Origin: Terriglobales bacterium
Lineage (GTDB): Bacteria; Acidobacteriota; Terriglobia; Terriglobales; Acidobacteriaceae
Assembly: GCA_035632755.1 (NCBI GenBank)
Contig: DASQGF010000168.1
Coordinates: 1-62,135 of the forward strand
Length of the DNA stretch: 62,135 nt
Direction of reading: 5' to 3'
The position numbers and the translations under genes are program-made. Below, piece by piece: positions 9,750 through 56,657 of this stretch. Positions within the stretch are counted from its first letter, which is position 1. The number at the start of each line of letters is the position of its first letter. The notes beneath the pieces were generated by a model. It ran no database searches. It was not told where the DNA came from and saw nothing but the letters and a program-made list of their open reading frames with translations.

Positions 9750-9888
9750 GATAGTAGACCCGTTTCTACAATCCATGGCCGGGGTGCGGGAATTCGCTCT
9801 CGCACTTGGTGTATATGGCGTCCTCGCCTACCTCCTACGAGTCGCGCAACGACCTGGGCGAACTGGACCGACTTCCCCGCACCTGAGG

Positions 9889-9917
9889 TTGTTGTTCTGA
9901 TAACAGAACGGTACAAT
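9889..9917 (+). promoter_or_regulatory. candidate sigma70-type promoter (TTGTTG-17 nt-TACAAT) with a 16-bp palindrome GTTCTGATAACAGAAC in the spacer
   Basis: Read directly: -35 at 9889-9894, -10 at 9912-9917, palindrome at 9894-9909. It lies about 85 nt upstream of the repeat-protein ORF in a locally AT-richer stretch. Confidence 0.35.
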
Positions 9918-9999
9918 TTGCCTCAATTTGGGGGCAAGATTTTCTCGCTTTCGCGATCAGAAGAGAGTCTTGATCAAGTGCCCTTCGGAGGTTATTAGC

Positions 10000-10230
10000 A
10001 TGAAGAAGTGGAACGATCCGACCAATCCTATGAACCCGAATAGCCCATTAAATCCGATGAACCCGATGAATCCCAACAGTCCGCTGAATCCCATGAACCC
10101 GCGGAATCCGGCCAGCCCGCGCAACCCGATGAACCCAGCAAATCCCCTGAGTCCTCTGAATCCCATCAACCGTAGACGACGGATGGAGCGTATGAACCCG
10201 CCCAATCCGTTTCGGCGCAATCGGCCGTAG
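10000..10230 (+). CDS. 76-aa X-(N/S)-P triplet-repeat protein with basic C-terminal tail
   Basis: MKKWNDPTNPMNPNSPLNPMNPMNPNSPLNPMNPRNPASPRNPMNPANPLSPLNPINRRRRMERMNPPNPFRRNRP. GGAGG lies 8 nt upstream of the ATG. Synonymous codons vary between repeats. The track ORF 9928..10230 is an N-terminal extension. Confidence 0.6.
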   Translation: MKKWNDPTNPMNPNSPLNPMNPMNPNSPLNPMNPRNPASPRNPMNPANPLSPLNPINRRRRMERMNPPNPFRRNRP

Positions 10231-11326: not shown

Positions 11327-11839
11327 ATGACCTGCAAGGAAGCACGCGAATACATGCTGGACGCGGCCCAGCAAAACACCGCCGCCGGCCTCCACCCCAG
11401 CGCGCCAAAAGCGGGCGCGCCGGGGACCCCGCTGGACGAGCACCTGCGCTCGTGCGCGAGCTGCGCCCGGGAACTGGAATCGATGCGCCGGACCATGACG
11501 CTGTTGGACGAGTGGGAGGCGCCCGAACCTTCTCCCTATTTCGATTCCCGGCTGCGTGCGCGCGTACGCGAAGCCGCGGCCGAACCTCGGAGCTGGCTGG
11601 AGTGGCTGCGCAAGCCGGCCATCGCCTTCGCCCTGGCTGTGTTGATGGTGGTGAGCATCACGATCTTCCGCAATGCTCCTGAGCACACGCCGGTTGCGAT
11701 GGACAGGCCGGCGCCCACCGTGGGTCAGGCTGGCACGGCGGTCAGCGACTTGCAGGAACTCGAGCACGACGGCGATATGTACGCCAACTTTGACATGCTG
11801 GATGATCTGGGAACGGAGGCGGAGACGGCCAATCCGTAG
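11327..11839 (+). CDS. anti-sigma factor (zf-HC2 type, single TM)
   Basis: N-terminal MTCKEAREYML...EHLRSCASCAREL (H-x3-C-x2-C). TM helix AIAFALAVLMVVSITIF. Directly follows the ECF sigma gene. Confidence 0.8.
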   Translation: MTCKEAREYMLDAAQQNTAAGLHPSAPKAGAPGTPLDEHLRSCASCARELESMRRTMTLLDEWEAPEPSPYFDSRLRARVREAAAEPRSWLEWLRKPAIAFALAVLMVVSITIFRNAPEHTPVAMDRPAPTVGQAGTAVSDLQELEHDGDMYANFDMLDDLGTEAETANP

Positions 11840-11844
11840 CTGAC

Positions 11845-12411
11845 GTGCTGAAGATCAGATCCATTGCGATATTGGTTCTTGCCGCTCTGGCGCTGGCGGT
11901 AGCGGCTGAGCCGCGGGCGCTGGCGCAGCGCCAGGACAAAGACAGACAGGAGAAATGGGGAGACCGCCAGCGCATGAAGGGCCCCGGTCCGCATCGCGGA
12001 GAATGGCTGCGCAAGAACCAGAACCTGCCTCCGGCAGAGCAGGAGAAAGCCCTGCGGAACGACCCCGGGTTCCGGCAGCTTGCTCCGGAGAGGCAGGAGC
12101 AGCTCATCAATCGGCTGCGCAATTTCAACAGCAGGCCGCCGGAGCAGCGGCAGCGGATTCTGGAGCGTATGGAGACCTTCGAGCACCTGCCGCAAGGCCA
12201 GCGGCAGCAGGTGCGCAACCTCTACGGCCAGATGCGGGACCTGCCCGAGGACCGCCGCATCGCCGTGCACCAGGCCGCCCGGCAGTTGGGTGGGATGAGT
12301 CCGGGCGAACGCCAGCGCATGATGAATTCTCCGCAATTCCGGCGGCGCTTCTCTCCTCAGGAGCAGAACCTGGTCCGCGGACTCGCCGAGTTAGAACCCG
12401 GCCAGCGCTAG
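11845..12411 (+). CDS. secreted Gln/Arg-rich helical-repeat protein (DUF3106-like), third gene of the ECF operon
   Basis: GTG start and signal peptide LKIRSIAILVLAALALAVAAEPRALAQ. Repeated P-E/G-x-R-Q motifs. The family name is from memory. Confidence 0.7.
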   Translation: MLKIRSIAILVLAALALAVAAEPRALAQRQDKDRQEKWGDRQRMKGPGPHRGEWLRKNQNLPPAEQEKALRNDPGFRQLAPERQEQLINRLRNFNSRPPEQRQRILERMETFEHLPQGQRQQVRNLYGQMRDLPEDRRIAVHQAARQLGGMSPGERQRMMNSPQFRRRFSPQEQNLVRGLAELEPGQR

Positions 12412-12567
12412 TTCGGTCGGGGTCGTCGGTCGTTGGCTCTCGGTCGTCGGCCGTTAAGTCCAATCTCGATGAAGACGATGTGGTCCTTCTGAAATCGCCT
12501 CAGTGATCCCGAGCGCACAAGAATACTTGCTTTTGCCGACGACCGAGGACCGACAGCCGACGACGGT
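12412..12567. repeat. inverted heptamer arrays (GGTCGTC-like units) flanking a 79-nt core
   Basis: Left arm 12421-12455 reads GGTCGTC GGTCGTT GGCTCTC GGTCGTC GGCCGTT. The right arm 12535-12567 read on the minus strand gives ..GGCTGTC GGTCCTC GGTCGTC GGC. The arms abut the stop codons of the two convergent genes. Confidence 0.85.
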
Positions 12568-14654: not shown

Positions 14655-15062
14655 ATGCCTTCCCGAGCTCGCTGGAGTGCCGTCGCGATTCTGCTGCTGG
14701 CGGGAGTGTGCGCCGCCTCCATCCCGCCGCAAAGGCCGGGTCCTCACGCTAAGCCGGGAGCGGTCTCCGACGCGGATTGGGTGCCTCCCTTCGCAGAACA
14801 GAGCCGCTGCCCCGCCGTTCTTCCTCCCAAGCCCCTGGCGACCCCCTTGCCCGCGTTTCGCAAGGCCGGTCGGGGGAACCTGAAGATCCGCTTCGTGATC
14901 GGGACCGATGGCCGGTTGCACAAGCTGGCCGTGGTCAACAGCGCCGGTCACGCCGCTGACTCCAAGGCCTTCAACGCGCTGCGGCAGTGGCGCTATGAGC
15001 CGGCCATGTGCAACGGCATCCCGATGGAGGCCGAGGGAACGGTGGAGTTCCCGGTAAATTGA
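14655..15062 (+). CDS. TonB C-terminal domain protein
   Basis: 135 aa with signal/anchor MPSRARWSAVAILLLAGVCAA. The C-terminus GNLKIRFVIGTDGRLHKLAVVNSAGHAADSKAFNALRQWRYEPAMCNGIPMEAEGTVEF matches the TonB_C fold pattern. Confidence 0.7.
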   Translation: MPSRARWSAVAILLLAGVCAASIPPQRPGPHAKPGAVSDADWVPPFAEQSRCPAVLPPKPLATPLPAFRKAGRGNLKIRFVIGTDGRLHKLAVVNSAGHAADSKAFNALRQWRYEPAMCNGIPMEAEGTVEFPVN

Positions 15063-15063
15063 G

Positions 15064-15119
15064 TAATTGGGTCATTGGGCCATTGAGTCATTTAGCCCTG
15101 GGTGATTGGGACTATTGAA
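15064..15119 (+). repeat. octamer tandem array (YCATTGRG units)
   Basis: TAATTGGG TCATTGGG CCATTGAG TCATTTAG, then three degenerate units. It starts 2 nt after the TonB-like gene stop. Confidence 0.8.
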
Positions 15120-15173
15120 CGACTGCCGCGAACCAAATTATGCTCGCGCGGCCAACTGCACCGGAGCCGTCCG

Positions 15174-15632
15174 ATGCCATCGCTGCCGGAGATTCTGAGG
15201 GACAGGACAAAAGCATTCGCGGTCAGAATCGTACGATTGTTTCGCCAACTGCCCAAGACGGACGAAGCCCGGATCATTGGCAAACAGCTCCTTCGATGCG
15301 GTACCTCGGTCGCAGCTAATTACCGCGCCGTCTGCCGTGCCCGTTCGCCGGCGGAATTCCTCGCCAAGATCGGAACGGTCGTGGAGGAAGCCGATGAGAC
15401 CGTCTTCTGGCTTGAATTTCTAGTAGAGACTGGGTTGGTCACCGCAAAGCGTCTCCAGCCACTATTGGACGAAGCGAATGAAATTCTCGCCATCGTCGCT
15501 GCGTCCCAGAGGACCGCTCGAGCACGGGGTCAATGGCTCAATGACCCGATGACCCGATCCTTCACCTTCCTTGCTCTTCCAAAAACTTTTCCACCTCGAT
15601 GGCGGCCATGCAGCCGGTGCCGGCAGCGGTGA
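15174..15632 (+). CDS. four-helix-bundle protein (23S rRNA intervening-sequence protein family)
   Basis: MPSLPEILRDRTKAFAVRIVRLFRQLPKTDEARIIGKQLLRCGTSVAANYRAVCRARSPAEFLAKIGTVVEEADETVFWLEFL. GGAG lies 7 nt upstream. The first in-frame stop is at 15630-15632, about 70 nt inside the convergent trxB gene. Confidence 0.8.
   Translation: MPSLPEILRDRTKAFAVRIVRLFRQLPKTDEARIIGKQLLRCGTSVAANYRAVCRARSPAEFLAKIGTVVEEADETVFWLEFLVETGLVTAKRLQPLLDEANEILAIVAASQRTARARGQWLNDPMTRSFTFLALPKTFPPRWRPCSRCRQR
15526..15560 (-). repeat. octamer tandem array, inverted relative to 15064-15119
   Basis: The minus strand reads GGATCGGG TCATCGGG TCATTGAG CCATTGAC CCC. It ends 1 nt before the trxB stop codon and encodes the tail GQWLNDPMTRS of the four-helix-bundle ORF. 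Confidence 0.8.
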
Positions 15633-16497
15633 TGGCCTGGCGATAGCGGCGGTCAGCAACGTCGCCGCAGGCATAGACGCCGGGGATGCCCGTGAACACG
15701 TAATCGCGCGTTATCAGGTAGCCGTCGGCGTCGGTGGCGAGTTGGCCGTCGAACATGGCGGTGTTGGGAACGTGCCCGATGCCGAGGAACAATGCGCTGG
15801 TGGGGAAGGTGTGCGTGTGTCCGCTGTGCACGTTGCGCAGCTTGAGCGCCGTGACCTCGTTCTTCCCGACGTCATACACGTCGTCCACCACCGTGTTGGT
15901 AAGGAAGTTGATCTTGGCGTGGTTCTGGGCGCGGTCGAGCATGATCTTGGAAGCGCGGAACTGGTCGCGCCGATGGATGATGGTGACCTTGGTGGCAAAG
16001 CGGGTGAGGAACAGCGCTTCTTCCATGGCGGAATCGCCGCCGCCGACCACCACGATCTCCTTGCCGGAGAAGAAAAAGCCGTCGCAGGTGGCGCAGGAAG
16101 ACACGCCGTGCCCGATGAGCGCCTGTTCATGCGGCAGGCCGAGCCAGCGTGCGGTAGCGCCGCTGGCCACGATCAAGCTGCGGGTGTGGATGGGCGGCTT
16201 GCCGCCCATAAGATGTAGAACGAAGGGACGCTGGCCGAGATCGGCGCGGTGGACGTGCGCGGTCTCGTATTCGGCGCCGAAACGCGCCGCCTGTGCCTTC
16301 ATGTTCTCGATCAGCTCCGGCCCCTGGATGCCTTCGGGGAACCCAGGGAAATTCTCGACCAGGGTGGTGAGCGAGAGCTGTCCGCCGGGTTCATGTCCCT
16401 CGAGCACCAGCGGCTTCAGGTTGGCGCGCGCGGCGTAAATCGCCGCCGTCAGTCCGGCGCATCCGGACCCGATGATCACAGTATTGCGGATTTCCAT
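15562..16497 (-). CDS. trxB: thioredoxin-disulfide reductase
   Basis: 311 aa with GSGCAG FAD motif, redox-active CATCDG and GGGDSAMEEA NADPH motif. Confidence 0.95.
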   Translation of the reverse strand: MEIRNTVIIGSGCAGLTAAIYAARANLKPLVLEGHEPGGQLSLTTLVENFPGFPEGIQGPELIENMKAQAARFGAEYETAHVHRADLGQRPFVLHLMGGKPPIHTRSLIVASGATARWLGLPHEQALIGHGVSSCATCDGFFFSGKEIVVVGGGDSAMEEALFLTRFATKVTIIHRRDQFRASKIMLDRAQNHAKINFLTNTVVDDVYDVGKNEVTALKLRNVHSGHTHTFPTSALFLGIGHVPNTAMFDGQLATDADGYLITRDYVFTGIPGVYACGDVADRRYRQAITAAGTGCMAAIEVEKFLEEQGR

Positions 16498-16545
16498 GGG
16501 TACTTAGATTAATGGCTCGCGGGTTTGATTCAAAGCGGGCTGCTA

Positions 16546-16594
16546 GCTTCTAGCTTCTGGTTATTCGCTTTTGGCTTTTGGCTTTTGGCTCTTG
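16546..16594 (+). repeat. heptamer tandem array (GCTYYTG x7)
   Basis: GCTTCTA GCTTCTG GTTATTC GCTTTTG GCTTTTG GCTTTTG GCTCTTG. It spans the stop codon (16561-16563) and the last ~11 codons (AAKSQKPKAKSE) of the minus-strand gene. Confidence 0.85.
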
Positions 16595-17232
16595 GCTGCC
16601 TGAGTCTTGCCCAGGCCCAGCCGCGCCAACTCCGGGGGAACACTCTCTCTCACACCCAGTGCCGCGCGATAACGGCTCATCACGCGGCTGGCGGCTGCGA
16701 ACACGCTCTCGTAGGCGGTCTGGTCGGCCTGAGCGCAGCGCGACAGGCCCAGAGAAGGCTTACCGAAGCGTTCTACGCGGATGCGGCTGGCCGGCGTGTC
16801 AGTCGCAACCACGGTGGTCGGACTGGCCACGGCGGAGACGCTGTCCTCGATCGCGACCTGCATCACGTTCTTGGGCTCGCGCCAGCGGAAGACAACGGTC
16901 TCGATGATGTCCTTCGCATCCAGGCTGACGGAGTACTGGGCGTTGGTCAGCGGCGCCTCAAGCGGGAACTCGCGACGCACCCGCACCCAGGAGGCGATGG
17001 GCGTATCGGGGGCACTGGAGCGGCCGCGGGCGATCTCGAACTCCGGCCCGAAGCGGGGAGTGGTGGGAATGCGCTCGAGGGCGGAGACGATCTCCTGCTT
17101 GTCGGCGTCGCTGGGAGAGCAGACGTTCAGGTAGTTGACACGCACCTGCATATCGCCCTGCTTAGGCTGCTGTTGCGCCTGCAAGGCCGCCGTACAGAGG
17201 ATCAGGAGCAGAAAGCATTTCAGCGGGGACAC
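16561..17232 (-). CDS. secreted hypothetical protein (223 aa)
   Basis: GTG start with a clear signal peptide MSPLKCFLLLILCTAALQAQQ. I recognise no family. Confidence 0.6.
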   Translation of the reverse strand: MSPLKCFLLLILCTAALQAQQQPKQGDMQVRVNYLNVCSPSDADKQEIVSALERIPTTPRFGPEFEIARGRSSAPDTPIASWVRVRREFPLEAPLTNAQYSVSLDAKDIIETVVFRWREPKNVMQVAIEDSVSAVASPTTVVATDTPASRIRVERFGKPSLGLSRCAQADQTAYESVFAAASRVMSRYRAALGVRESVPPELARLGLGKTQAAKSQKPKAKSE

Positions 17233-17247
17233 GCGGTGATTGTAGTT

Positions 17248-17289
17248 CAGTTGCCAGTTGTCAGTCGCCGGTCGCCCGTTGCCACTCGG
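17248..17289 (+). repeat. heptamer tandem array (CRGTYGC x6)
   Basis: CAGTTGC CAGTTGT CAGTCGC CGGTCGC CCGTTGC CACTCGG. It lies between the start of gene 16561..17232 and the stop of the receiver gene. Confidence 0.8.
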
Positions 17290-17308
17290 ATTCCCCCGGG
17301 CCTGGGAC

Positions 17309-39388: not shown

Positions 39389-39600
39389 GGTATCCCTCGC
39401 CTGCGGACAGCTCCGCAGCCTCCATTCTCCCGACCCAGCTCCACCCTGCACAGTGACCGCAATCACAGGGGGTCGTGATTTGAGTCATCGTGCCCATCCA
39501 TCACGTACGCTTGTAAGCGCGGTCACAGACCCCTACGAGCACTCGCCTATAGTGGGAATTGCAGGATCATCGCGAGGCCTCGCTCGCGGGAGGCGTGCCC

Positions 39601-54490: not shown

Positions 54491-55576
54491 CTAGCGCGCG
54501 GCTGCGGTTGCGGGCGCATCCGGGGTCCCCAGCGCGCGCCGGTTTTGCGCGGGCTGGGGTGGCAGTTCGCGGCGCACCACGGCGGCGATCTGCCGCACTT
54601 CCGACATCAATTCGTCGAATTGGTCGGGATAGAGCGACTGCATGCCGTCGGAGAGCGCGCGGTCGGGATCGTTGTGGACTTCGACGATCAGGCCGTCCGA
54701 GCCCACCGCCACCGCCGCCCGCGAAAGCGGGGTCACTTTGTTGCGCTTGCCGGTGCCGTGGCTGGGGTCCACCAGGATGGGCAAATGGCTCAGGCGATGC
54801 ACCGCCGGCACCACGCTCAGGTCCAGCGTGTTGCGGGTGTGGTCGGCGAAGGTGCGCACCCCGCGCTCGCACAGGATCACGTTGTAGTTGCCCTCGCACA
54901 TCACGTACTCGGCCGCCATGAGAAACTCTTCCAGGGTGGCCGCCATGCCGCGCTTCAGCAGCACCGGTTTCTTCGACCGCCCGGCGCGCTTCAGCAGCGA
55001 GAAGTTCTGCATGTTGCGAGCGCCGATCTGGATGACGTCGGCGTACTCTTCCACCAGCTCCAGCGATTCGTTGTCGATGGCCTCGGTGACGATGCGCAGG
55101 CCCCAGCGCTCGCGCACGTCCGCCAGGATCCGCAGGCCCTCCTCGCCCAGTCCCTGGAATGAGTAAGGCGAGGTACGCGGTTTGTATGCGCCGCCGCGGA
55201 AGAACTGCGCCCCGGCGCGATGCACGCGCTCGGCGATGGCGAATGTCTGCTCGCGGCTCTCTACGGCGCACGGTCCGGCGATGATCGCCAGCTCCGGCCC
55301 GCCCATGGTCGCGGCGCTGCCCGGGAAGCGAACGACGGTGTTCTCCTCCTTCACGTCGCGACTCACCAGCTTGTAGGGTTTGCTGACGCGGATGACCTCG
55401 GCCACGCCCGGCATTTCATCCAGGCCGATCTCCACCTCGCCGCGGTTTCCGGTGATGCCGATGGCGGTGCGCTGCGCCCCGGGGATGGCGTGTGCGCGGT
55501 ATCCCGCCGCTTCGATCTTTTCGCAGACCGCACGCACCTGTTCTTCGGTGGCGTGCGCTTGCATGACGACTAGCAT
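54491..55576 (-). CDS. aroF: 3-deoxy-7-phosphoheptulonate (DAHP) synthase, type I-beta with N-terminal regulatory domain
   Basis: 361 aa from [14 protein letters not shown]. Contains [27 protein letters not shown] and DPSHG motifs. The upstream 94 codons of the track ORF look non-coding. The gene symbol follows common usage for this class. Confidence 0.85.
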
Positions 55577-55667
55577 GGATGACCTCTGAGAAACTCCATA
55601 GTGTACCGCAGAGGACGGCGAAAACGTTGGGTTCTCGCGCACATGTCGTTCGTGCGCACCGAATATA

Positions 55668-55698
55668 CTGGCCACTGACCACTGACCGCTGGTCACTG
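55668..55698 (+). repeat. heptamer tandem array (CTGRYCR x4)
   Basis: CTGGCCA CTGACCA CTGACCG CTGGTCA CTG. It lies in the divergent region between the DAHP synthase and nfo starts. Confidence 0.75.
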
Positions 55699-55703
55699 TT
55701 TTT

Positions 55704-56657
55704 ATGCCCATTCCCATGGCTCGCGAACAGGACATCCTGAACCTGCCGCCGCCGAAGCGGCCGCCGCGCCGGACCCCCCGCCGCATTGGCATCCACACCT
55801 CAACTGCCGGCGGTGTCGAGAATGCCGCCGAACGCGCCTGGCGCCTGGGCTGCAGCACCTTCCAGATTTTTTCCTCGAGCCCTCGTCAATGGAAGCCGTA
55901 CGAACTCGGCCCAAAGCAGTGCGCGGAAATGCGCCGCCTGCGCGAGAAGTACGACCTCAGGCCACTGGTCATCCACGCCAGCTACCTGCTGAACCTGGCC
56001 GGCGGCAATCCCGAGTTCTACGCCAAGACCATCGCGGCGTTCCGCGGGGAAGTCGAACGTGCGCTGGCGCTCAGCGCCGAGTACCTCGTTGTCCATCCGG
56101 GATCGTTCCGCGGCGCGAGCCGCGAAGAAGGACTGGCGCGAGCTGCGTATGCCATCCGTGAGGGCGCCGCGGGTCTCGACCTGTCCAAGGGCGGACTGAC
56201 CGTGCTGGTCGAGAACACGGCCGGCGCCGAGTACTCGCTGGGCGCGAGTTTCGAGCAGGTAGCGGCGCTAGTGGGCGTGCTGCGCGAATTCATCCCCGTG
56301 GCCGCATGCATGGATACCTGCCACATCCACGTGGCCGGCTACGACATTGTCACCCCAACGGGCTACGAGGCGACGCTGCGGCAGATCGATGAGACCATTG
56401 GCCTCAAGAATGTCCCAATTTGGCATTGCAACGACGCCAAAGCCGCCTTCGGCTCGAAGCTCGACCGCCATCAGCACATCGGCCAGGGCACAATCGGCAC
56501 GGCGACCTTCAAGCGCCTGTTGAATGATCTTCGCCTGGCGCACGCCGCCTTCATCGCCGAGACGCCGATTGACAGGCCGGGAGATGATCGGTGGAATGTC
56601 GATGCATTGAAGCGGCTGGTGGGAAACAGCCAGTCTCGGCGTCACAAATCTCTCTAG
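55704..56657 (+). CDS. nfo: deoxyribonuclease IV (endonuclease IV)
   Basis: [29 protein letters not shown] and CMDTCH motifs of the Nfo TIM barrel. The N-terminal ~25 aa extension makes the start uncertain. Confidence 0.9.

Follow-up and report, generated by a model that had tools for sequence, protein, structure and literature searches.

A 4HB gene bracketed by inverted octamer arrays

The 62,135-nt stretch analyzed here, contig DASQGF010000168.1 of a Terriglobales bacterium (the window; positions without a locus name refer to it), carries a small gene for a four-helix-bundle (4HB) protein between a TonB_C-like gene and trxB. This gene is bracketed by two arrays of 8-nt repeats that run in inverted orientation. 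An earlier reading of the sequence, the original prediction, had described short-repeat arrays at four consecutive gene junctions and had taken the first two as the ends of a TonB|trxB junction. The 4HB gene at 15174-15533, which had been missed, makes these two arrays its flanks. The parts of the element are as follows.

15058..15119 (+): 5' arm, about 8 units ATYGRGYC, read as ATTGAGTA ATTGGGTC ATTGGGCC ATTGAGTC ATTTAGCC, the rest degenerate
15120..15173 (+): leader, from the 5' arm to the 4HB start codon
15174..15632 (+): 4HB gene, with a core of 120 codons at 15174-15533
15526..15560 (+): 3' arm, inverted octamers TCAATGGC TCAATGAC CCGATGAC CCGAT

The open reading frame (ORF) at 15174-15533 (+) between the two octamer arrays is a PF05635/TIGR02436 gene (S23p, Avd-like). 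Its product matched Pfam PF05635 ("23S rRNA-intervening sequence protein") with an E value of 3.5e-15 and 56.6 bits (cut-off, 33.8), NCBIfam TIGR02436 with an E value of 3e-23 and 82.1 bits (cut-off, 24), and PDB 2rld_A with an E value of 1.8e-19. A protein search found at least 7,980 relatives among 8,000 scored candidates; the best match among those listed was 94% identical, had 120 aa, and ended in ARARGQ*.

The TonB_C gene upstream ends within the first unit of the 5' arm, at a TGA (15060-15062). The array thus starts at 15058 and includes this stop, rather than beginning 2 nt after it as had been proposed. At the other end, the 3' arm overlaps the former 4HB stop and ends 1 to 3 nt short of the trxB stop (15562-15564). 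Each octamer unit of the two arms holds a TGA, on both strands. The arms are complementary over 33 nt (15066-15098 and 15526-15558, 82%, 427 nt apart) and no inverted repeat in 12-18 kb is longer; next in length is a pair of heptamer arrays (12422-12451 and 12535-12564, 30 nt, 83%, 83 nt apart). In the predicted RNA structure of 15055-15565, the two arms form the closing stem (minimum free energy, -208.8 kcal/mol; z = -4.4). Complementary termini of this kind around a 4HB ORF agree with the stem of about 20-30 bp by which S23p intervening sequences (IVSs) are recognized. Taken together, the segment at 15058-15560 is an element of about 500 bp, a 4HB gene bracketed by inverted ATYGRGYC arrays, which we call the cassette.

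At the ancestral 4HB stop (TGA, 15534-15536) the window has TGG, so that the ORF runs on for 32 codons (WLNDPMTRSFTFLALPKTFPPRWRPCSRCRQR) to 15632, with about 70 nt of it antisense to the 3' end of trxB. This loss was seen in the junction alignment, in which two close relatives, L082 and L174, have TGA. Several 4HB homologues end in array-encoded tails, e.g., NDPMTQ or QWLDDPMAQWLNDPMTR. Comparing the window with L082, we obtained a dN/dS of 0.03 for the 4HB gene against 0.08 for trxB. This implies that the 4HB protein is functional and under purifying selection.

The neighbors of the 4HB gene are the TonB_C-like and trxB genes, not helix 25 or 45 of 23S rRNA. No transposase, integrase, or nuclease domain was found in the cassette, and no defense-system model in PADLOC matched the 4HB protein. 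Among the neighbors in the window and in syntenic loci, there was no reverse transcriptase or variable-protein gene of the type found in diversity-generating retroelements (DGRs); template and variable repeats were not searched directly. Scanning viral contigs with the 4HB alignment gave zero relatives. One phage record holds a distant 4HB homologue, and arrays are absent there.

Census of short-repeat arrays in the window

Arrays were called with Tandem Repeats Finder (TRF) and then read in register. Seven arrays of period 7 or 8 with at least 2.8 copies were present in the window, compared to a mean of 0.58 and a maximum of 4 in 100 dinucleotide-preserving shuffles. The arrays are real and beyond chance. 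All seven lie inside, or straddle the edge of, noncoding DNA, which makes up about 12% of the window on a crude, hand-corrected gene map. The TRF calls were as follows.

12413-12454: heptamer TCGGTCG
12536-12564: heptamer CCGACGA, inverted partner of 12413-12454
15058-15096: period 8, unit ATTGAGTC
15541-15558: period 8
16539-16558 and 16567-16597: period 7, GCTTCTA and GCTTTTG
17248-17284: period 7, CAGTTGC
55667-55691 (+): ACTGACC, 3.6 copies

All four arrays of the original prediction were recovered in this way; reading in register extended their TRF calls to the limits given there. Unit sequences vary widely among the arrays of the window (ATTGRGYC, TCGGTCG, GCTYYTG, CRGTYGC, and ACTGACC). 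Within arrays, the units had been said to vary by transitions. This did not hold, since transitions to transversions at unit lag numbered 8:13, 3:4, 5:5, and 6:4 in the four arrays, and the ratio was 1.19 over 60 related cassettes. No octamer array was found in the window beyond the two cassette arms; a match with two mismatches at 39479 is no array. Rfam, searched over the window, gave only a tRNA at gathering thresholds and no rRNA, with nothing at an E value of 1 or less in 12.3-17.4 kb. A scan of 12-18 kb for promoters and terminators was at or below chance, with a single weak hit within an array.

The cassette is kept at the same junction in close relatives

The best trxB matches of the window are metagenome-assembled genomes of Acidobacteriaceae/Terriglobia. 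Contigs of the best 4HB relatives (L081-L086; L174 for protein P0006) are syntenic with the window. The shared order is sigma-70, x, DUF3106, transglutaminase-like, ProDH, TonB_C, 4HB, trxB, and a 225-aa protein, and it continues with an extra 186-aa gene (in the relative, not in the window), a receiver gene, and a sensor phosphatase gene. Both octamer arrays stand at the same positions in L082 and L174, and the differences are substitutions at unit positions. The 3' arm is shorter by one unit in the window than in these two relatives. In all three, the first 5'-arm unit supplies the TGA that ends TonB_C, and in the relatives the first 3'-arm unit (TCAATGAC) does so for the 4HB gene. With the roughly 11 codons that a heptamer array gives to the gene at 16561-17232, these stops bear out the earlier claim that arrays donate stop codons and terminal codons.

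The leader at 15120-15173 has diverged far more than the 4HB ORF in the alignment with L082. The cassette has been inherited vertically with its neighbors across about 13% nucleotide divergence in trxB. In more distant Terriglobales relatives, found via trxB, the region between trxB and ProDH is empty or occupied by other genes, which makes the TonB_C-4HB segment variable on that scale. Comparison of orthologous junctions had been suggested along with the original prediction. It found the octamer arrays present, with turnover of units, while the heptamer array at 17248-17289 was absent from L082.

Arms and gene go together across related metagenome loci

When metagenomes were scanned with the 4HB protein, 80 loci with 62-94% identity were recovered, 77 of which had enough flank for counting. 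Arrays of period 8, 16, or 24 were found upstream of the gene in 64/77 loci, downstream in 65/77, and on both sides in 59/77. By eye, nearly every locus had the same layout: an 8-nt array from the neighbor's stop codon, a leader (very roughly 30-170 nt), the ORF, and the inverted array. Arrays covered 16% of the bases within about 250 nt of the 4HB gene and 1% elsewhere in the same loci.

The unit consensus over loci was ATYGRGYC, with positions 1-4 (ATYG) conserved across loci. Individual loci had units of different families (ATTGAGTC, ATCGGGYC, ATTGATTC, ATTTGTAA, ATTTAGYG, ACTGAATC, and ATTGGCGA), and one had the heptamer CAGAAGT. Within each locus the two arms match each other, irregular units included (31/31 in L139). 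The best arm match had a median of 29 nt at 90% over the 77 loci. Complementarity within a locus exceeded the cross-locus score in 72/77, and 97% of loci lay above the 95th percentile of random-interval controls drawn from the same loci. Thus, the arms are complementary, co-vary between loci, and change length by whole units.

We used the spacing of arrays as a prediction test. Three other array pairs lay 370-390 nt apart, and each enclosed a second 4HB gene (E = 1e-36 to 1e-55). The spacing of complementary pairs was bimodal: 60 pairs were 352-523 nt apart with the gene inside, and 34 pairs, with a median gap of 26.5 nt, were gene-less. The loops of the short hairpins are unique. In 14/14 cases their arms nearly matched those of the full cassette at that locus, and in L152, L128, and L147 this near-identity ran over 28-31 nt and included the order of unit variants. 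Arms have therefore been copied or homogenized between sites within a genome. At L097 2870-3520 (also in L105), a full cassette is bordered by the 5' and 3' remnants of another 4HB gene, which are themselves flanked by arrays. The order there is array, a 14-codon 4HB N-terminal remnant (QAQELKERTKQFGK), array, full 4HB gene, array, a C-terminal remnant (VAASQRTSKEQ…), and array. This order suggests that one cassette entered, or recombined with, another that had an internal deletion.

The 4HB gene was co-oriented with its upstream neighbor in 58/67 loci (p = 7e-10) and with its downstream neighbor in 45/60. The stop of the upstream gene was at most 30 nt from the start of the array in 57/67 loci. 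Arrays extend from this stop as far as the next start codon, which they sometimes overlap, and the 3' arm often enters the ATG of the following gene. Because a unit can hold a stop codon while the period is not divisible by three, an array can close all three reading frames, and about half of them do. Cassettes or same-armed hairpins sit at nuoD|nuoE in L112, L118, L139, L140, L157, and L161 and at nuoF|nuoG in L138, L147, L154, and L166; these junctions of the essential NADH dehydrogenase operon were assigned from C- and N-terminal peptides of the flanking ORFs. The cassette thus sits inside host transcription units and reads in the same direction as they do, with its array starting at the host stop codon.

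4HB homologues of other phyla are also flanked by arrays

A tblastn search against plasmids gave 30 4HB homologues, mostly cyanobacterial, and the flanks of 17 were inspected. All 17 had 7-8-nt arrays on one or both flanks, and in most the downstream array was the reverse complement of the upstream one. The 17 come from Cyanobacteriota, Chloroflexota, Bacteroidota, Spirochaetota, and Bacillota. Examples are as follows.

Planktothrix: upstream AATCCCC and AATCGTA; downstream ACGATTT
Nostoc punctiforme: upstream AAGTCGG; downstream ACTTCCG
N. flagelliforme: upstream TAATTCG; downstream AATTACG
Aulosira: upstream TTCAAAA; downstream AATTTTG
Euhalothece: upstream CCAGTTA; downstream ACTGGTC, 12.6 copies
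Chlorohelix (Chloroflexota): upstream ATGAAGG; downstream TCATAAT
Monoglobus (Bacillota): upstream AATTAGG; downstream TAATTCC
Treponema (Spirochaetota): upstream AGGAAAG and TCCGCTC; downstream CTCTCCG

In Bernardetia (Bacteroidota) the flanking repeats look direct and not inverted. On plasmids, 4HB genes lie within defense operons, at DUF1156|HEPN, DrmD|MmeI, hsdS|hsdR, and cas2|cas1 (plasmid loci L167-L184). The heptamers flanking cyanobacterial 4HB genes (e.g., AATCCCC) are of the short tandemly repeated repetitive (STRR) type. The original prediction had linked the window to STRRs through GGTCATT. That string is a substring of the 8-nt unit and not a heptamer unit, so the link failed in this form; it survives in the heptamers that flank the cyanobacterial 4HB homologues.

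Gene-less hairpins and unpaired heptamer arrays

The remaining arrays of the window are heptameric.

12413..12564: gene-less hairpin, with a TCGGTCG-type arm at 12413-12454, an 81-nt loop, and an inverted CCGACGA-type arm at 12536-12564
16539..16597 (-): unpaired heptamers GCTYYTG (sense CAAAAGC / CAGAAGC)
17248..17289 (-): unpaired heptamers CRGTYGC, 6 copies, between the receiver gene stop (17309) and the GTG start of 16561-17232
55667..55691 (+): unpaired heptamers ACTGRCC, 3.6 copies, in a divergent intergenic region between genes starting near 55575 (-) and 55704 (+)

The hairpin at 12413-12564 fills the spacer between the stop codons of two convergent genes, at 12411 and 12569. Folding of 12415-12564 gave z = -3.4 on the + strand and -5.5 on the - strand. 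No 4HB remnant was found in its loop (12455-12535) in six frames. It is a gene-less element of the same build as the cassette, with heptamer arms. The orthologous junction of L082 carries a different palindromic element.

Gene-less heptamer hairpins were also present in Acidobacteriota loci fetched via trxB, namely in Pyrinomonadaceae (L026, L027, and L051), Vicinamibacterales (L023), and Terriglobia (L001 and L002). Loci of other phyla, obtained in the same way, mostly lacked them. The folds of these hairpins are very strong (z = -7.2 and -9.5). The ACTGRCC unit of 55667-55691 forms both hairpin arms in L001 (8751-8835, z = -7.2). CAGAAGC/T likewise occurs as paired arms, in a hairpin of L026 and on the flanks of a 4HB gene in L160.

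The array at 16539-16597 straddles the stop (16561-16563) of the gene at 16561-17232, supplies its last 11 or so codons, and extends 22 nt past that stop, upstream of trxB. A heptamer-coded tail is present in both genomes: the 223-aa protein of the window ends in ...AAKSQKPKAKSE, and its L082 counterpart ends in ...AKRQKPKPKGQ (quasi-heptamer). More distant orthologues have other Lys/Ala/Pro-rich tails. The coding part of the array is an old coding-tail repeat, tolerated in a tail that is disordered and rich in Lys. Past the stop of the 225-aa gene, L082 has a different small repeat element instead. As to 17248-17289, an extra 186-aa gene sits at this place in the syntenic L082.

The three unpaired arrays folded no better than shuffles (16530-16605, z = 0.15; 17240-17300, z = 0.63; and 55655-55705). 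An inverted-repeat search of 12-18 kb found no partner arms for 16539-16597 or 17248-17289. Pairing of these two with each other was considered and rejected, as their units are not complementary. We found no evidence of function for either. The three unpaired arrays are STRR-like, and they are most likely orphaned arms or slippage products. The original prediction had seen a maintained structural or processing signal in all four of its arrays. For the octamer pair, which is complementary, kept in two relatives, and found on both sides of the gene in 59/77 loci and in five phyla, this view was supported. It did not extend to the two heptamer arrays, which are unpaired and unstructured, 17248-17289 being absent from the syntenic relative as well.

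Other repeats at and near these junctions

Other small palindromic elements stand at L082 7157-7378 and 11333-11443, where the window has heptamer arrays. Motifs found in them include CTGAGCGAAGCGAAGGACC and GCTCAGGATGAC, read in translation as "SEAKD" and "LRMT." Different repeat families have thus colonized the same spacers in sister genomes. In L001, the spacer upstream of trxB (9915-9945), orthologous to the window junction at 16498-16560, holds a different 8-nt array (GGTTTTAA, 3 copies). The spacer between a sensor gene and the orthologue of the 223-aa protein in L002 (8200-9090; Terriglobia) contains three copies of an element, one of them inverted, with a G+C-rich core of about 90 nt (…GGCGTCCCGCC…GGAGGGCGTCTCGCCCTCC…) between heptamer arrays of the TCGGACG and CTGACGC types. 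This spacer also holds a 66-aa gene in one intact and one decayed copy, and partial cores occur at 9845-9880 and 11340-11380.

Both the window (16498-16540, - strand) and L082 (11334-11380) have a TAATCT hexamer 8 nt before the ATG of trxB, which suggests a conserved -10-like box with a very short leader. The heptamer array at 16539-16597 sits just upstream of this hexamer, and the promoter scan made no call there. In L056 (10983-11022; OZ252237.1, an unclassified bacterium), TCATTGG is repeated 5.7 times directly downstream of trxB; this unit is a cyclic permutation of TTGGTCA, the heptamer named as an STRR unit in the original prediction. Finally, a small ORF at about 9996-10229 (+), MKKWNDPTNPMNPNSPLNPMNPMNPNSPLNPMNP..., is made of NPxNP repeats (TRF period 18/36 at 10016-10171). 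It is a coding repeat with no relation to the intergenic arrays.

Comparison with known repeat systems

The IVS in the 23S rRNA of Coxiella burnetii contains an S23p ORF and a 28-bp terminal stem, with two to three tandem GACAGAT heptamers of strain-variable copy number in its 5' part (PMC4990558). In vitro work and rapid amplification of cDNA ends placed the RNase III cut within this stem, where the first repeat starts, and the authors view the ORF as decaying and probably untranslated (PMC4990558). Intervening sequences of 23S rRNA with S23p ORFs have also been reported in Leptospira, Brucella, and Xanthomonas (PMC4990558). The window cassette shares with the Coxiella IVS a PF05635 ORF in sense orientation, a length of about 430-500 nt, a stem of about 28-33 bp, and short tandem repeats. 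It differs in lying between TonB_C-like and trxB genes instead of in helix 45 of 23S rRNA and in having an 8-nt unit and more copies. In addition, purifying selection on the 4HB protein of the window is strong, in contrast to the reported decay of the Coxiella ORF, and RNase III cleavage, experimental in Coxiella, is predicted for the window cassette.

STRR heptamers of heterocystous cyanobacteria are intergenic, come in several unit families per genome, often form hairpins, and have no known function (PMC2670836). The 7-nt arrays of the window and the Acidobacteriota hairpins look alike in this respect; arrays of period 7 or 8 are dispersed in the window and mainly intergenic (7 arrays in 62 kb), and cyanobacterial 4HB genes are flanked by such heptamers. 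A 7-nt unit is found at 16539-16597, 17248-17289, 12413-12564, and 55667-55691, whereas the 4HB-flanking arrays have period 8. The window also differs in being Terriglobia-like Acidobacteriota, judged by its trxB matches, and in its unit sequences, which are not those of STRR1-3.

TAACTGA and other heptamer direct repeats abut start codons in Beggiatoaceae, Cyanobacteria, and Bacteroidetes (MacGregor 2015, PMC4679880), and Geobacter metallireducens carries tandem heptanucleotide elements (PMC2700814). Deletion of heptamers altered recF and recO expression in Nostoc (bioRxiv 10.1101/2022.06.06.494920). The Beggiatoaceae and Geobacter heptamers resemble the window arrays in being short, overwhelmingly intergenic, phylogenetically scattered, and next to start or stop codons; they were reported mostly as direct repeats of one unit upstream of start codons. 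The terms "helix bundle" and "S23" have 0 occurrences in the text of MacGregor 2015 (PMC4679880).

Like miniature inverted-repeat transposable elements (MITEs) and REPINs (hairpin pairs of repetitive extragenic palindromes), the elements come in two size classes with common terminal arms per genome and occupy intergenic spacers. Unlike them, they show no transposase or RAYT (REP-associated tyrosine transposase), the loops of the short forms are unique, and the arms are tandem arrays rather than unique sequence. No target-site duplications of the kind made by MITEs were seen in a search that was not exhaustive. PF05635 is treated in the literature as Avd-like (PMC10053308). Avd of DGRs is homologous in fold and family, but the 4HB gene of the window stands alone between housekeeping genes without DGR-type neighbors. 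We class the octamer pair as a new form of the S23p IVS cassette that lies outside rRNA, and the heptamers as new STRR-like members.

Interpretation and alternatives

Our preferred reading, which we regard as probable though well short of settled, is that the region combines a 4HB cassette whose arms would form an RNase III-cleavable stem, a gene-less hairpin, and unpaired STRR-like arrays. The cassette would be transcribed by read-through from the upstream gene. Both arms would then be on one transcript and could pair into a double-stranded RNA stem of about 30 bp. RNase III would cut this stem and part the cassette RNA from the host mRNA, by analogy with the homologous cassette in Coxiella 23S rRNA; in the window such cleavage is conjectured from that likeness. 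Cutting would insulate the host genes from the insert and might control 4HB expression. Stop codons in all frames of the array would end host ORFs at the cassette boundary, and arm length would shift by slippage of units. Complementarity would be kept at the DNA level, through gene conversion among arms and copies or through the template switching known from quasi-palindromes. Among the roles first suggested for the arrays (terminators, recombination hot spots, and cassette boundaries), the last came closest, for the octamer pair.

Several points weigh against this reading. The cross-phylum sample is small (17) and plasmid-only, and the 77 loci are one subfamily, gathered by similarity to the 4HB gene of the window. 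Neighboring ORFs were crudely called, array counts depend on TRF thresholds, and about 18/77 loci have no TRF-detectable array on one side. The stem of the window is only 82% complementary. Wobble asymmetry was absent: arm mismatches that would be G·U pairs on the sense RNA numbered 98, against 87 on the antisense only (p = 0.46), which is why we assign the upkeep of complementarity to DNA-level processes. RNase III cleavage alone also leaves the periodicity, the period of 7 or 8, and the conservation of ATYG unexplained. Since neither an RNA nor a DNA reading accounts for the period or for ATYG, there is room for a sequence-reading protein, and the 4HB protein is the obvious candidate.

The alternative that fares best, which is compatible with the preferred reading and which we consider possible without thinking it probable, is a mobile element acting at the DNA level. 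The arrays would be terminal inverted repeats with multiple subterminal sites for a recombinase or for the 4HB protein, full cassettes would be autonomous and short hairpins nonautonomous, and the RNA stem would be incidental. Mobility would fit the near-identity of hairpin and cassette arms, variant order included (14/14), the bimodal spacing of array pairs, the nested cassette of L097, and the lack of wobble asymmetry. It would also fit the presence of cassettes at many unrelated junctions, including those of nuo and defense operons, and the variability of the trxB-ProDH region among relatives. The cassette has no transposase, integrase, or nuclease domain, and we know of no catalytic role for a 120-aa helical bundle. 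Target-site duplications and clean empty sites were not identified, the search for duplications not being exhaustive. Hairpin loops are unique and not copies, and the window cassette was inherited vertically with its neighbors. The strong purifying selection on the 4HB protein fails to separate the mobile-element reading from the preferred one. That the IVS ORF helps mobility is an old proposal of Ralph and McClelland, as cited in PMC4990558.

It seems unlikely that the arrays are sites for a protein that binds single strands or periodic nucleic acid and that tunes or couples translation or acts on promoters. Such a role has been proposed for the TAACTGA repeats of Beggiatoaceae, sets of which end about 1 nt before start codons (MacGregor 2015, PMC4679880), and for the heptamers of Nostoc. 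The span of arrays from the upstream stop codon to the next start codon and the conservation of ATYG at unit positions 1-4 would suit it as well. However, it leaves the inverted complementary pairing and the bracketing of one gene family unexplained, unit sequences differ widely within one window, and a candidate binding protein was not identified.

We give still less weight to neutral slippage, by which the arrays would be functionless microsatellites in weakly selected spacers and disordered tails. Two heptamer arrays are unpaired and unstructured, 17248-17289 is missing from the closest relative, and orthologous arms differ by one-unit indels. The CAAAAGC array gives a Lys-rich peptide in every frame, and the tail is Lys-rich in all orthologues. 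According to work cited in PMC4679880, long simple repeats in many prokaryotic genomes are most often heptanucleotides, which is explained by slippage. Neutrality does not account for arm complementarity that tracks unit changes between loci (72/77), a 16-fold concentration of arrays around one gene family, an arrangement conserved across five phyla, or identical arms at several sites within one genome. For the paired arrays, we regard the neutral reading as already refuted.

Bidirectional intrinsic terminators, as first suggested, are very improbable: the hairpin at 12413-12564 does fold strongly on both strands of a convergent junction and the 3' arm of the cassette does abut the trxB stop, but no G+C-rich stem with a T-run was found at the octamer arms, 12413-12564, or 17248-17289, the sole array-internal hit (+ strand, 16542-16554) is at chance level (4 found, 4.2 expected in shuffles), the unpaired arrays form no stem, and related genomes have the same hairpins between co-oriented genes of single operons (nuo), where termination would harm.

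Implications for 4HB genes and STRR-like repeats

Gene callers and annotators miss or overextend genes at such arrays; here the overextension is 32 codons antisense to trxB. Arrays of period 7 or 8 can in turn be used as a flag for the cassette.

To our knowledge, STRR-like repeats, recorded over decades from several phyla, have been without an explanation since 1990, and stand-alone 4HB (S23p/Avd-like) proteins, thousands in number, have no assigned function. We found no paper tying 7-8-nt arrays to 4HB genes, which is weak evidence of novelty because the search was made mostly without subscription papers. As far as could be found, the cross-phylum link between arrays and 4HB genes is undescribed. 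We tentatively propose, as a speculation that may well prove wrong, that PF05635 genes and STRR-type arrays are the two halves of one widespread element. The protein would recognize, propagate, or homogenize the arms, and gene-less hairpins and orphan arrays would be nonautonomous derivatives. If true, this would give an origin for STRR-like repeats and a function for an abundant 4HB family.

The association of arrays and gene also makes the rRNA IVS a special case of a much commoner cassette that sits among ordinary genes, including those of nuo and defense operons. The association of arrays with 4HB genes is tight and extends across phyla, and it turns two old unknowns into one testable problem.

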